A stretch of DNA of 64,000 nt. Source: Escherichia coli. Lineage in GTDB: Bacteria; Pseudomonadota; Gammaproteobacteria; Enterobacterales; Enterobacteriaceae. The first letter of the stretch is position 1. Each line of letters begins with the position of its first letter. The position numbers are program-made. The stretch is from NCBI RefSeq assembly GCF_041886205.1, contig NZ_CP169030.1. One strand, written 5' to 3'. Shown here in pieces: positions 57,001 to 63,000 of the stretch.

Positions 57001-60000
57001 CATCAATGGCGAAGCTGGCGCATGGGCACGCATCATGAGCGGTACCGGCTCTGCCAGTGGTGGTTTCAGTGACAACTACACGCACGTTCAGGTCGGGGTC
57101 GACAAAAAACACGAGCTGGACGGACTGGATTTGTTTACCGGTTTCACTGTCACACACACTGACAGCAGTGCCTCCGCCGATGTTTTCAGCGGTAAAACGA
57201 AGTCTGTGGGGGCTGGCCTGTATGCTTCCGCCATGTTTGATTCCGGTGCCTATATCGACCTGATTGGCAAGTATGTTCACCATGATAATGAGTACACTGC
57301 AACCTTTGCCGGACTCGGAACCCGTGATTACAGCACGCATTCATGGTATGCCGGTGCAGAAGCGGGCTACCGCTATCATGTCACTGAGGATGCCTGGATT
57401 GAGCCACAGGCTGAGCTGGTTTACGGTTCTGTATCCGGTAAACAGTTTGCATGGAAGGACCAGGGAATGCATCTGTCCATGAAGGACAAGGACTACAATC
57501 CGCTGATTGGCCGAACGGGTGTGGATGTGGGTAAATCCTTCTCTGGTAAGGACTGGAAAGTGACAGCCCGTGCCGGTCTGGGCTACCAGTTCGACCTGCT
57601 GGCTAATGGCGAAACCGTATTGCGGGATGCATCTGGTGAAAAACGCATCAAAGGTGAAAAGGACAGCCGTATGCTGATGTCCGTTGGCCTGAATGCAGAA
57701 ATCAGGGATAACGTCCGCTTTGGACTGGAGTTTGAGAAATCCGCCTTTGGTAAGTACAACGTTGATAATGCAGTCAACGCTAACTTCCGTTACTCGTTCT
57801 GATACTCCGTATTCAAAAGGGCCTGCGGGCCCTTTACACTCAGTGCCTGCCGCCCTGATATGTCTGAGAGACATTTCCGGGATGTCAGCCGACTGGTTTA
57901 CTTTACTGCGATGACTAAAGCTGGCAGTAATGCCGGCTTTTTTACGGCCACATACGTCTTCCTCTCATCCGGAACTGTGATACAAATCCTGCATACAGGA
58001 TTGACCGCCGGTTCCTGCAAATGGCACATTTTCAGTAAGATAGCGACGGTTACATTCCCCCGTCATGTGTGGCACAGCTGTCACCGGGAAAGAAACGGAA
58101 AGCACATGAAAAACATCAAAACTCACACCGGACTCCTTATCCACAAAGAACAAGCGCGGCGCGTTCGTCTTCATGAAACACCCACTGCCTGGTGCCACAC
58201 GCACCGGGAATGCTACAGCAAAACGACCGGTCGCCGCTGCGGCAGCCCTGACAGTCTCAGCAGGCTGATTCTGAGCAGCATTCAGCCCATAGAATGAGAT
58301 AACCCCTATGAATGATGGCAGACAGACGCCTCCGACCCCCGAGGCATGGAAAATCCGGTTTCTGGCGAACGGTACACCCGGCACATGGTTTTACACCGAT
58401 GACGCAGCTGTCACAAAAGAGTGGCTGCGGACACATTGTGACGATGTGGAAGTGATCCCCCTGTGCCGTATGCATGACGGTCCCGTTTTCCGGGAACACC
58501 ATATTAATGAACTCAGCGCCGCACTGGCCAGAATGCTCCATATGCACCACATACTACTGGAACGAACCCGGTACAGAGAAAATATCCATGATGCAGAATG
58601 TATTCGTGAAATTCACGAAGCTCCCCTGCAGGCTATCGGCATCCTGGAAAAATACAAACGCACAAAATCATAAGGCTGTTCTATGTGGATCCTGATTTTC
58701 TGGCTCTCATCCCCCTTTAATGTCTCCTCCGGCGATGCCCGGCAACCCACACTGTGAACCGCCCCGGGTTTCCTGGAGAGTGTTTTATCTGTGAACTCAG
58801 GCTGCCAGATCATCGTTTCCGATGGAAGCATAATAAGCTTTTTCTGCTTCTGCCGGAGGAGTATGGCCCAGCCTTTCCAGCAATCGTCGATTGTTATACC
58901 AGTCCACCCACGTGAGTGTGGCCAGTTCCACTTCTGCACGGTTTTTCCAGCTCTTACGGTGTATTACCTCCGCTTTGTAAAGACCATTGATGCTCTCCGC
59001 CATCGCGTTGTCATACGAGTCGCCTGTACTTCCTGTTGATGCCAGTAATCCGGCTTCCTTAAGCCGCTGTGTGTAGGCCAGCGATACATACTGAGAACCT
59101 TTATCACTGTGATGGACCGTGCCGGACGGTCGACGGGCCCATAACGCCTGCTCCAGTGCATCCAGCACGAATGTCGTTTCCATGGACGATGAGACCCGCC
59201 ACCCCACGATGTATCCGGCAAACACATCAATGATGAACGCCACATAGACGAAGCCCCGCCATGTGCTGACGTAAGTAAAATCAGCCACCCACAGCTGGTC
59301 AGGTCGTTCTGCCACGAACTGACGGTTTACGCGGTCGCCTGCGGCAACGGCTTTCCGGCTGATGGTCGTACGGACCTTTTTACCCCGGAGAACACCGGCA
59401 AGTCCCATAACCGCCATGAGACGTGCCACAGTGCATCTGGCCACTCTGATACCTTCCCGTAACAACTGACGCCAGACTTTACGCACACCGTATACCTTGT
59501 GATTTTCATCGTATACGCGCTGTATCTCTTTCTTCAGCCAGTCATCGCGCTGCGCACGGGCACTGCGTTTATCCGGATGATGTCGCTGTTGCTGACAGTG
59601 GTAATACGTTGACGGGGCAATATGCAGTTCGCTGCATAGCGGTCCGACCCCGTACTGCTCACGCAGCTTATCCAGCAGTGGCATCATTTTTTCCAGAGGC
59701 GGTCGAACTCCGCCTTCGCAAAATAAGCGGAAGCCTGGCGAAGGATATCGTTACTGCGGCGCAGTTCACGATTTTCACGTTCCAGCTCTTTCAGACGCTG
59801 ACGTTCAGCGGTGGTGAGCCCTCCATCACCGCCCCCGGTATCCCGCTCATGCTGGCGAACCCAGACACGCAGAGTCTCCGGCGTACAGCCAATCTTTGGA
59901 GCAATGGAACAAATTGTCGCCCATTGTGAGTCATATTCGCTCTGACTTTCCAGAACCATACGGACTGCCCGTTGACGGACTTCGGGGGAAAAACGAGTAT

Positions 60001-63000
60001 TTTTAGTCATCCTGTTTACCTCTTTCTCAGGAAGTTTAGTCTCCAGGATTCCCGGGGCGGTTCACTGGCTGTTCACAGTCAGGCGTTCCGTACTGAAAAA
60101 GCCTGTCGGGATGCCTTCACCGCGCTGAAAAAAGAAAACGTGGGGGAATTTGCTCTCCGTGGCGTCTGCGTCCCCGCCGGAGAATAAACAAGACATGCGC
60201 AACCGGAGTCCGCTATGACATCCCCGGACCTTATAGAACCACGGCAGCCTGACGACTGCAAATTGAAAACCGGCCCTGTTCGTCCTGTTGTTGCCGCACG
60301 CCCCGCAGAATATGTATGCTCTGAGGACCTGTTTTATTAAGGACTCATCCCCTTATGTTGACCCGCAAAAGTATCGATACAGTTCTGCTCTCTGTTGGTG
60401 CTGAGAAGCTCTCACAACGTGAATGGGACTGGATGAAGATGCTCAAACCCATGGACCCACCACCTGCGATGGTCGCTGCCTCCATCCTGGAGCACCGTGG
60501 CGACACAGCAGCCCTTACCCTGCTACAGGATACCGGGGGTTAATCCGTCCTCATGTTATCCGGTTTTACTCCCCGCCCTCTGAAACGCCTGTTCACAGCC
60601 AACCAGTGCTGGACGTCCTTCCTGGATGCGGGCGGTCTGCGCGATATCGAGGTTGAGGCTGTCACCAAAATGCTGGCCTGCGGCACGCGGATACTGGGCG
60701 TGAAGGAATACAACTGCGATAAACCTGACTGTCCCCACGTCAGATACGTCACTAACTCATGTGGCAGCCGTGCCTGCCCGTCCTGCGGAAAAAAGGCCAC
60801 AGACCTGTGGACAGCGACACAGCTGAATCGTCTTCCTGACTGCGACTGGGTACACCTGGTCTTCACCCTGCCGGCCACGCTGTGGCCGGTGTTCGAAAGC
60901 AACCGTTGGCTGCTGAATGACGTGTGCCGTCTGGCGGTGGAGAATCTGCTGTATGCCGCCCGAAAACGGGGGCTGGAACCCGGTATCTTCTGCGCCATCC
61001 ACACATATGGCCGTCGTCTCAACTGGCATCCGCATGTACATGTGTCAGTAACCTGCGGGGGGCTGAATAAGCACGGTCAGTGGAAAAAGCTGAGCTTCCT
61101 GAAAGACGCGATGCGTTCGCGGTGGATGTGGAATATGCGGCAGTTGCTTCTGAAAGCGTGGTCAGAGGGGATGGCGATGCCGGAGTCGTTGTCACATATC
61201 ACGACGGAATCACAGTGGAGAAGCCTGGTGCTGAAAGCCGGCGGAAAATACTGGCATGTGTACATGTCGAAGAAGACGGCCGACGGGCGGAATACGGCAC
61301 GCTACCTGGGTCGTTATCTGAAGAAGCCACCAATAGCGGCTTCCCGGCTGGCACATTACAACGGAGGGGCAAGCCTGAGCTTCCGTTACCTGGACCACAA
61401 AACGGGAGAAACGGCGACGGAAACACTGACGCAGCGGGAGCTGGTCGCGAGGCTGAAACAGCACATCCCGGAGAAGTTTTTTAAGATGGTGAGGTACTTC
61501 GGGTTCCTTGCCAACCGGGTGTGTGGAGAGAAGCTGCCGAAGGTGTACCGGGCTCTGGGGATGGATAAACCGGAACCGGTGGCGAAAGTGTGCTATGCAC
61601 AAATGGTGAAACAGTTCCTGAGTCGTGACCCGTTCGAATGCGTGCTGTGTGGCGGCCAGATGGTATACCGCCGGGCCCTTGCGGGGCTGAATGTATCAGG
61701 GCTGAAGAAAAACGCGCGGGATATCAGTCTGCTGAGGTATATGCCGGCCTGACGCAGGCTAAGTGTGCCCAGGAATTGGTGCAGGAATAAAAAACAGCCT
61801 GTTGCGGTATAAGAATCGACCATGCAGAGAGAGAAAACACCGGAGTGGTGGGAAAAGCAGAAGAGCTCACGTGGCATAAGGCGTGGACAGCGGTATCGTC
61901 TGGTTTTTCAATTTCCTATACGTGGACGTTCAGGTTATTCCGTCCAGTTCTGCTGGCAGCGTGAGATCTCCCCTGGTATAGTGATGCCACGGCAAAGTGC
62001 TCAAACAGGGATAATATGATGGAAATCAAGGCTCAACAGTTTGTCACATCAACGGGGCGGCAAGTCCTTACTGACAACGGACAACAAGGTATGGGCGGCG
62101 TGGCGGGTATCGGTTCCACGACTGAAAAGCATCAGGGGCGCGTGGCGGAAGCAATTTTTGCGAACTGCGCGGAACTGGATAACGACCAGCTTAACGAGAT
62201 CATCGAGTGGGTTCGGCTCTATCAGCGCTGAATGCCATCATCAGGCTGCGCAAGCGGCTTTTTTTACGCCCCTTGTTTAATTCCCGCACTACCTGGACAT
62301 TCAGGTGATTCTGTCCATCTGTATAAAAAACAACAAAAAGACTTGTTAACAGGTCATATAAGGAGTATTTTTGAGACTGGTTAAATAGTCTTGAAAGGTG
62401 GCCTATGCCTAACATTATTCTCAGTGATACAAGCGCCAGTGTCAGCGAGCTGAAGAAAAATCCGATGGCGACAGTCAGCGCCGGTGATGGTTTCCCGGTC
62501 GCTATCCTGAACCGTAATCAGCCTGCTTTCTACTGTGTACCCGCAGAGCTGTACGAAAAGATGCTCGATGCCTTGGACGATCAGGAGCTGGTTAAACTGG
62601 TAGCCGAACGCAGCAACCAACCGCTGCATGATGTGGACTTGGATAAATACCTATGAGGTATCAGGTAAAATTCAGGGAAGATGCGCTGAAAGAGTGGCAA
62701 AAACTGGACAAGACTATTCAGCAACAGTTTGCGAAAAAGCTAAAAAAGTGCTGTGACAATCCGCATATTCCTTCCGCAAAACTGCGCGGGATAAAGGACT
62801 GCTACAAAATAAAATTACGTGCGTCAGGTTTTCGCCTGGTCTATCAGGTGATTGACGAACAATTAATTATCGCTGTTGTAGCAGTGGGTAAACGTGAGCG
62901 CAGTGACGTTTATAATCTTGCCAGTGAAAGAATGAGATAATTCACGGCGGATTATCGGTTCAGCCCTCTCATTAACCGCTGATGCTGAGTTGGTGTGTAG

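Follow-up and report, generated by a model that had tools for sequence, protein, structure and literature searches.

The window, a 64,000-nucleotide stretch of Escherichia coli DNA, carries a single IS629 copy, and sequence comparison makes us highly confident that this intact element transposed into a plasmid-derived segment, where it separates codon 24 from codon 25 of a conserved small open reading frame (ORF) that travels with SPATE autotransporter genes. None of the comparisons made yielded evidence against a simple insertion, and the case as a whole is already known: it is a textbook IS629 insertion. The features that define the site are as follows.

58683 to 58754, plus strand: 5' part (codons 1-24) of the 63-codon ORF, now stopped by the TGA that forms the first three IS bases.
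58752 to 58754: left CTG of the 3-bp target-site duplication, a single CTG in empty sites.
58755 to 60064, minus strand (transposase genes): complete IS629 (IS3 family), 1310 bp, from ends read directly and full-length matches.
58755 to 58779: orfB-distal terminal inverted repeat, the IRR with respect to the transposase, TGAACCGCCCCGGGTTTCCTGGAGA, 23 of 25 positions complementary to 60040-60064.
60040 to 60064: terminal inverted repeat on the upstream side of orfA, the IRL with respect to the transposase, reverse complement TGAACCGCCCCGGGAATCCTGGAGA.
60065 to 60067: right CTG of the 3-bp target-site duplication, a single CTG in empty sites.
60068 to 60187, plus strand: 3' part of the same ORF (codons 25-63 and the stop codon), restored on joining to 58683-58754.

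The occupied-site junctions read GGCAACCCACACTG followed by TGAACCGCCCC on the left and GGGGCGGTTCA followed by CTGGCTGTTCACAG on the right. A match of 3 bp arises by chance in about 1.6% of cases and is weak evidence alone, and it is the comparison with empty sites that makes the reading of the CTG triplets as a target-site duplication decisive. The sequence-only reading had described a simple insertion with a CTG duplication and had proposed comparison with an empty site in related genomes; such sites were found, and they bear the description out. The empty site of STEC (Shiga toxin-producing E. coli) plasmids (loci L001 and L002) reads CCCACACTGGCTGTTC, with one CTG, and once the element and one CTG are removed, the window aligns to an STEC plasmid over 2040 bp, ungapped, at 99.2% identity. 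The in-silico empty site is likewise continuous over the junction in many STEC plasmids (query positions 1-771, junction at 600), and the flanks are 99-100% identical to empty sites.

Two sets of matches that resembled further occupied copies of the site were rejected. Matches H46 and H76 cover 89% of the query made of the IS plus its flanks, but they are empty at the window's insertion position and have instead, about 0.2 kb downstream of it, an IS1203-type copy with a GGC duplication of its own; the copy in pOkiPb01689_1, at that distance downstream and with GGC on both sides, is labelled IS1203. Plasmids of a second group, Shigella pINV and large plasmids of E. coli (H47-H55 and H77-H105), were considered as sharing the IS together with its right flank, but their junctions differ: they share IS629 and, 295 bp further, IS91-linked DNA starting at window position 60236, and their IS629 flanks are AAC and TTA, without duplication.

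The insertion did not land in intergenic DNA, as had been supposed from the sequence alone; it splits a 63-codon ORF between codons 24 and 25. Precise in-silico excision, which joins 58683-58754 to 60068-60187, restores the product MWILIF...VPAGE, annotated by RefSeq in the empty-site plasmids as the hypothetical protein WP_000264906.1. Collection blocks with this exact product number 11,638, the ORF lying there beside SPATE autotransporter genes, and same-length homologues are found at 70-76% identity. The N-terminus of the 63-amino-acid product is hydrophobic, and the protein carries two cysteines that are largely conserved. At the DNA level, the restored 192-bp ORF is identical at eight of ten empty-site loci. 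The differences among these loci number three and are all synonymous, but we do not read them as evidence of purifying selection because exact identity of the protein was how the loci had been chosen, which makes that argument circular; the diverged same-length homologues were used in their place. An exact look-up of the chimeric 71-amino-acid ORF spanning the right junction returned no record. The insertion inactivates a small conserved hypothetical gene. A broader reading, which we offer tentatively and hold with somewhat less than even confidence, is that the ORF encodes a genuine, uncharacterised small protein that travels with SPATE genes, and that the window contains a natural IS629 knock-out of it in a plasmid-derived segment captured via IS3 beside cobU of a pks-positive chromosome; the arrangement in which a plasmid-derived segment lies beside cobU through IS3 was absent from 5,426 complete E. 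coli genomes.

That the insertion event is evolutionarily young is loosely supported, and in the sense of relative recency only. The duplication is intact, the element is identical to widespread copies, and neither the 5,426 complete E. coli genomes nor 72,556 plasmids yielded an occupied site, nor was the occupied left junction found by exact search in GTDB representative genomes or JGI metagenome contigs. This absence elsewhere is weaker evidence of recency than it appears because the source genome and its close relatives lie outside the collections searched, and identity to other copies does not date the event because gene conversion could maintain that identity. An alternative interpretation is that the insertion is real but not recent, having taken place in an ancestral plasmid, prior to capture of the SPATE-linked fragment by the chromosome, with homogenised copies or slow change mimicking youth. 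The target segment (56883-60235) is indeed plasmid-type DNA bounded by IS3 and IS91-linked sequence, the lineage from which the window comes is missing from the collections, and zero differences over 1.3 kb would be compatible with a long span at bacterial substitution rates. We nevertheless consider this interpretation unlikely, though by some way the strongest of the alternatives, because the duplication and both inverted repeats are undamaged, the flanks remain nearly or fully identical to empty sites, and the occupied site was absent from the genomes, plasmids, representatives and contigs searched. The earlier description of the insertion as recent holds in this relative sense, and no absolute age can be derived from it. 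The occupied site could act as a lineage marker.

The region around the insertion is mosaic: two further breakpoints bounded by IS elements lie at 55624/55625 and 60235/60236. Among chromosomes, the best matches come from pks-positive strains, MS20673 and Nissle 1917 among them, and their collinearity with the window extends only up to 55624. The neighbouring IS3 copy (55625-56882) has the flanks GAT and TCA, without duplication, and sits at the breakpoint between chromosomal and plasmid-type DNA, as expected from the earlier suggestion that it provides a rearranged contrast to the IS629 copy. The IS3 neighbour took part in a rearrangement, or was left by one; the IS629 copy has no such role. 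The IS629 insertion offers a clean internal control when the IS3 and IS91 junctions nearby are interpreted as breakpoints of rearrangement.

Such a mosaic setting invites the interpretation that the CTG match is coincidental and that the element arrived by homologous recombination between two IS629 copies, leaving a rearranged junction of the kind seen at the neighbouring IS3, not by direct transposition; the chance frequency given above and the lack of any duplication in three of ten copies compared (two distinct sites) are both compatible with it. Recombination between two copies would, however, link non-adjacent DNA, whereas the flanks here adjoin each other, across exactly one CTG, in many independent plasmids and chromosomes, with no gap over the aligned 2040 bp, and precise removal restores an ORF that is intact in more than 11,000 collection blocks. 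We regard recombination as extremely improbable, and the empty-site alignment has in effect refuted it already.

Direct transposition is also the reading favoured by the exact ends of the element. The sequence TGAACCGCCCCGGG opens the element at 58755 and CCCGGGGCGGTTCA closes it at 60064, and the coordinates of the 1310-bp element given in the sequence-only reading proved exact. The terminal inverted repeats noted there match at 23 of 25 positions; complementarity of at least 23 of 25 nucleotides at fixed positions has a chance probability of about 2e-12. A repeat-finding tool reports 26 nt at 92%, a call that is longer because the adjacent G and C of the CTG flanks happen to add one base. 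Among ten copies, the TGAACC...GGTTCA ends are invariant and the flanks differ; therefore, CTG is duplicated target and not part of the element, and the possibility raised at the outset that the triplets might lie within it was not borne out. Duplications of 3-4 bp (CTG, GGC, GTAC, GTT, GGG and TGG) occur at six of the nine distinct sites represented by these ten copies, and IS629 is reported to generate duplications of 3-4 bp (PMC3271280), a range that includes the 3 bp found here. That the element is instead 1316 bp long, with longer inverted repeats that take in the CTG triplets and no target duplication, is extremely improbable and is refuted by the empty site and by the ends of the ten copies: the repeat does extend outward by that one G/C pair, but CTG and its reverse complement CAG are non-complementary beyond this single base, the same termini are followed by different triplets in copies from different contexts, the limits of a depositor-annotated IS629 enclose the same 1310 bp, and one CTG is retained in the empty site.

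The transposase genes lie on the minus strand, together with the elements of a predicted frameshift signal.

59684 to 60010, minus strand: orfA, intact ORF of 108 amino acids encoding a helix-turn-helix DNA-binding protein (Pfam HTH_Tnp_1, E = 7e-13).
58797 to 59687, minus strand: orfB, intact ORF of 296 amino acids in the -1 frame relative to orfA, encoding the catalytic DDE domain (Pfam HTH_21 and rve, E = 8e-28).
59613 to 59729, minus strand: programmed -1 frameshift region, ALIL pseudoknot (Rfam RF01497, scoring 120.2 bits where the gathering score is 50 and matching the full model, 1-117).
59723 to 59719, minus strand: TTTTG slippery motif at the 5' end of the ALIL region.
59692 to 59687, minus strand: A6 run shortly before the orfA stop.

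Members of the IS3 family are about 1.2-1.55 kb long, with imperfect terminal inverted repeats and 5'-TG...CA-3' ends. The present element agrees in length (1310 bp), in its repeats (23/25), in its TG start and CA end, and in its short duplication, with CTG on both sides and one CTG when the site is empty. It has the two-ORF layout of the family, orfA and orfB overlapping by ATGA with orfB in the -1 frame, and OrfB carries a DD(35)E triad at D136, D195 and E231, with 35 residues from the second D to the E, positions that were chosen by eye from sequence motifs and not by structural alignment. The predicted ALIL pseudoknot, the TTTTG motif, the A6 run and the open -1 frame together point to the frameshift signal of the family: the -1 frame is open from TTTTG onwards and predicts a 404-amino-acid OrfAB fusion, the same length that PGAP gives for the frameshifted coding sequence of identical copies. 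The copy is complete and apparently functional, and it may still be active; an intact IS629 could give rise to more insertions and deletions in the strain.

By analogy with what is established for the IS3 family, a -1 ribosomal frameshift, probably located at TTTTG with the ALIL pseudoknot as its stimulator, would yield the OrfA-OrfB fusion, a 404-amino-acid DDE transposase. This enzyme would copy out the element in circular form, its inverted repeats abutted, the circle would be pasted into a target cut with a 3-bp stagger, and repair of the stagger would leave the CTG...CTG duplication. Such a copy-out-paste-in pathway through a circular intermediate is established for IS3 family members (bioRxiv 10.1101/2023.06.07.543989), and we infer that it may apply to the present element.

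The element was initially called IS629-like, and comparison allows the full name: by depositor annotation and Shigella copies, it is best identified as IS629. It is co-terminal with, and 99.5% identical over 1310/1310 bp to, a feature of LC567824 annotated 'IS3 family IS629, target site duplication CCAG'; copies with no differences over 1310 bp occur in many E. coli chromosomes and plasmids, and 1297 records are at least 99% identical. IS629 belongs to the IS3 family, was originally described from Shigella sonnei and is abundant in E. coli O157:H7. The present element shares its 1310-bp length, termini and orfA/orfB/-1 frameshift layout, with no substantial difference, and is 99.5-99.7% identical (4-6 differences) to the copies on the Shigella pINV virulence plasmids of S. 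sonnei and S. flexneri. The exact variant is the one found at 100% identity in many non-O157 E. coli.

IS1203, or IS1203v, is an IS629 isoform from STEC O111:H- and O157:H7. Its length, ends, gene layout and 3-bp duplications are as in the present element, but we rejected assignment to this isoform, the IS1203-labelled copy having 49 substitutions over 1310 bp (96.3% identity) as against 4-6 for the Shigella copies and none for many E. coli copies. This gap of about 4% matches the distance between IS629 sub-types I and II (PMC3271280), and the element fits the Shigella-type sub-type described there. The neighbouring IS3 copy, although of the same family (TG...CA ends, orfA/orfB and an expected 3-bp duplication), is a different element of about 1258 bp, and blastn within the window detected no similarity between it and the IS629 query. 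The main value of these comparisons lies in annotation, as they supply the name IS629, the exact ends and the target-site duplication; PGAP names the IS1203-labelled copy 'IS1203 family' but gives copies identical to the present element just the name 'IS3 family transposase'.

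The insertion at 58755-60064 is a known element showing known behaviour, an IS629 copy, which the sequence-only reading observed and bounded correctly and interpreted essentially correctly, apart from two points: a conserved small ORF is disrupted, which corrects that reading, and the recency of the insertion is relative, which softens it. Direct reading of the ends bore out, to the base, the 1310-bp length, the inverted repeats and the CTG flanks, and the following features were located.

58752-58754 and 60065-60067: flanking CTG triplets, outside both ends
58755-60064: IS629 element, 1310 bp, genes on the minus strand
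60010..59684, minus: orfA, 108 aa, intact, Pfam HTH_Tnp_1
59687..58797, minus: orfB, 296 aa, intact, Pfam HTH_21 and rve integrase core
59729..59613, minus: ALIL pseudoknot, full-length Rfam match, 120 bits (gathering score 50)

From 58755 the left end reads TGAACCGCCCCGGGTTTCCTGGAGA and the right end TCTCCAGGATTCCCGGGGCGGTTCA, its imperfect reverse complement; 23 of 25 positions match inside the element, a result with a chance probability of ~2e-12 at fixed positions, and the pair was the top inverted repeat of the repeat finder, whose figure of 26 nt at 92% counts one outside base per side that pairs by chance. OrfB has residues D136, D195 and E231, the last two separated by 35 residues, and orfB lies in the -1 frame, overlapping orfA at ATGA. 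ALIL stimulates -1 frameshifting in this group of IS3-family elements; a TTTTG motif stands at the start of the match and the -1 frame is open from there, such that a shift would give a 404-aa OrfAB, the same length as the ‘programmed frameshift’ CDS annotated by PGAP on identical copies. Judged by sequence, this copy, the only IS629 in the window, has all the predicted requirements for further transposition.

Copies with 100% identity over the 1310 bp occur on many chromosomes and plasmids of E. coli; some match to the element occurs in 4263 of 5426 E. coli genomes, at 99% or above in 1297 records. Assignment to IS629 is upheld by these copies and by the element of Stx2 phage LC567824, which has the same ends, is 99.5% identical and was described by its depositors as ‘insertion sequence: IS3 family IS629; target site duplication CCAG’. 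Virulence-plasmid copies from S. flexneri and S. sonnei show 4 and 6 differences from the window copy, respectively, whereas a copy labelled ‘IS1203 family’ by PGAP shows 49 (96.3% identity). Rump et al. distinguished IS1203-like and Shigella-like IS629 sub-types, which differ by ~4-5% (PMC3271280), and the sequence of the window copy places it in the Shigella/IS629 type.

Since random 3-base flanks match with a probability of ~1.6%, the empty site was searched for in complete E. coli genomes, with a query that joined the 600 bp up to and including the left CTG to the 600 bp that follow the second CTG. Positions 1-771 of this query matched continuously at 98.7-99.9% in many STEC plasmids, reaching 171 bp beyond the junction at 600, and the empty site read directly in two of them is CCCACACTGGCTGTTC, with one CTG only. 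Window 56883-60235, minus the IS and one CTG, aligned with STEC plasmid pOkiPb01694_2 as a single ungapped block of 2040 bp at 99.2%. An alternative interpretation is that the triplets are part of the element, but a comparison of ten copies in different contexts showed constant termini, TGAACC...GGTTCA, and differing flanks (CTG/CTG, GGC/GGC, GTAC/GTAC, GTT/GTT, GGG/GGG and TGG/TGG; three copies at two distinct sites lacked a duplication and one had an imperfect pair). The single CTG of the empty site and the constant termini with differing flanks therefore show a simple insertion with a CTG target-site duplication, as originally proposed. In O157:H7 genomes, 21 of 47 IS629 sites were reported to have 3-4-bp duplications (PMC3271280). 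From knowledge of the IS3 family (reviewed in bioRxiv 10.1101/2023.06.07.543989), we infer that -1 frameshifting would yield OrfAB, which would bind the inverted repeats; one end would attack the other on the same strand, replication would copy out a circle with abutted repeats, and the circle would be inserted at a target with staggered cuts 3 bp apart, gap repair leaving CTG on each side.

The target had been called intergenic, which does not hold: the insertion splits a 63-codon ORF that, in the empty-site plasmids, RefSeq lists as hypothetical protein WP_000264906.1.

58683-58754 and 60068-60187, plus: interrupted 63-aa ORF, restored by excision

Precise in-silico excision restores MWILIFWLSSPFNVSSGDARQPTL followed by AVHSQ...VPAGE; the split falls after codon 24, and the IS opens with TGA, which now ends the stump. 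The assembly collection contains the exact product in 11,638 blocks, and in most places read the ORF sits downstream of a SPATE gene in a module with one to two further small ORFs, in the order Peptidase_S6 (SPATE) autotransporter, 120/121-aa ORF, 63-aa ORF and 91-126-aa (usually 103-aa) ORF. Homologues of the same length occur at 70-76% identity, one from Citrobacter amalonaticus, and the family alignment (A1) shows a conserved hydrophobic N-terminus, MWILIFWLSSPF, with two cysteines kept in most members. This spread, module position and conservation of length, N-terminus and cysteines argue for a real small gene; its product matched no family in a Pfam search and may be an uncharacterised small protein of an unnamed family. 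A chimeric 71-codon ORF (59972-60187, plus) begins at a TTG within the IS, leaves it through the orfA-proximal end and continues in frame through the final 39 codons of the interrupted gene; the assembly collection has no record of it, and it probably has no significance.

That the insertion is recent, as first described, is favoured by intact inverted repeats and duplication, by flanks 99-100% identical to the empty sites, by 0 differences from the widespread IS629 copy and by the finding of no second occupied site among the complete E. coli genomes (5,426), plasmids (72,556), GTDB representative genomes and JGI metagenome contigs, collections from which the source lineage is missing. However, 1.3 kb accumulates changes slowly and gene conversion can homogenise IS copies; given these points and the missing lineage, ‘recent’ can only be relative.

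The window is chromosome with the pks (colibactin) island (clbB, 38641-48270), followed by ldtA-cobTSU, and is collinear with Nissle 1917 and MS20673 as far as 55624, exactly at the left end of an IS3 copy.

55625-56882: IS3 copy, junctions 55624/55625 and 56882/56883, flanks GAT (left) and TCA (right), no duplication
56870-57802: 3' ~310 codons of a Peptidase_S6 (SPATE) autotransporter gene, Autotransporter beta-domain
58308-58673: 121-aa ORF between the SPATE remnant and the 63-aa ORF
60236-60239: GAAC, start of IS91-linked DNA
60355-60543: 62-aa ORF in IS91-linked DNA
60553-61752: IS91-family transposase, Y2_Tnp and Zn_Tnp_IS91
62405-62940: overlapping 83-aa and 95-aa ORFs, annotated as Phd/YefM antitoxin and RelE toxin in matching E. 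coli plasmids

Plasmid-type SPATE DNA begins directly right of IS3, whose junction truncates the autotransporter gene. The non-matching flanks, the end of collinearity at the left end and the plasmid-type DNA from the right end suggest that IS3 mediated the capture of plasmid DNA beside cobU. The contrast first drawn with IS3 is thus fair: IS3 marks a breakpoint of rearrangement, whereas IS629 inserted cleanly within one rearranged block (56883-60235), which holds only the SPATE 3' part, the 121-aa ORF and the 63-aa ORF with IS629. Between clbA (48956-49690) and ldtA, ORFs in 48584-50651 correspond to the degenerate IS3-family transposase remnants that the Nissle 1917 and MS20673 annotations place at the border of the pks island; part of this remnant matches the last 231 bp of the IS3 copy (56652-56882) at 94.8% identity.

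A second breakpoint lies at 60235/60236, where homology to the SPATE-linked module stops and IS91-family-linked DNA starts (60236-61752, 96.6% identical to Shigella pINV); none of the 5,426 complete E. coli genomes searched has this exact junction. Beyond the transposase lie the Phd/YefM-RelE pair, which from those annotations looks like a plasmid addiction module now in a chromosomal context, and IS remnants that share 95-97% identity with E. coli plasmids. In pINV (loci L003, 4001-5310, and L005, 501-1810), 295 bp separate an IS629 from the same IS91-linked DNA, with the orientation found in the window; we rejected a shared arrangement, the likeness in hit tables being superficial, as the pINV flanks are unrelated (AAC/TTA, no duplication). 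On STEC plasmid pOkiPb01689_1, an IS1203-type copy (L001, 3607-4916; 96.3% identical to the window IS) lies in the same module ~0.2 kb downstream of the window's site with its own GGC duplication, and the two are thus independent IS629-group insertions ~200 bp apart in different lineages.
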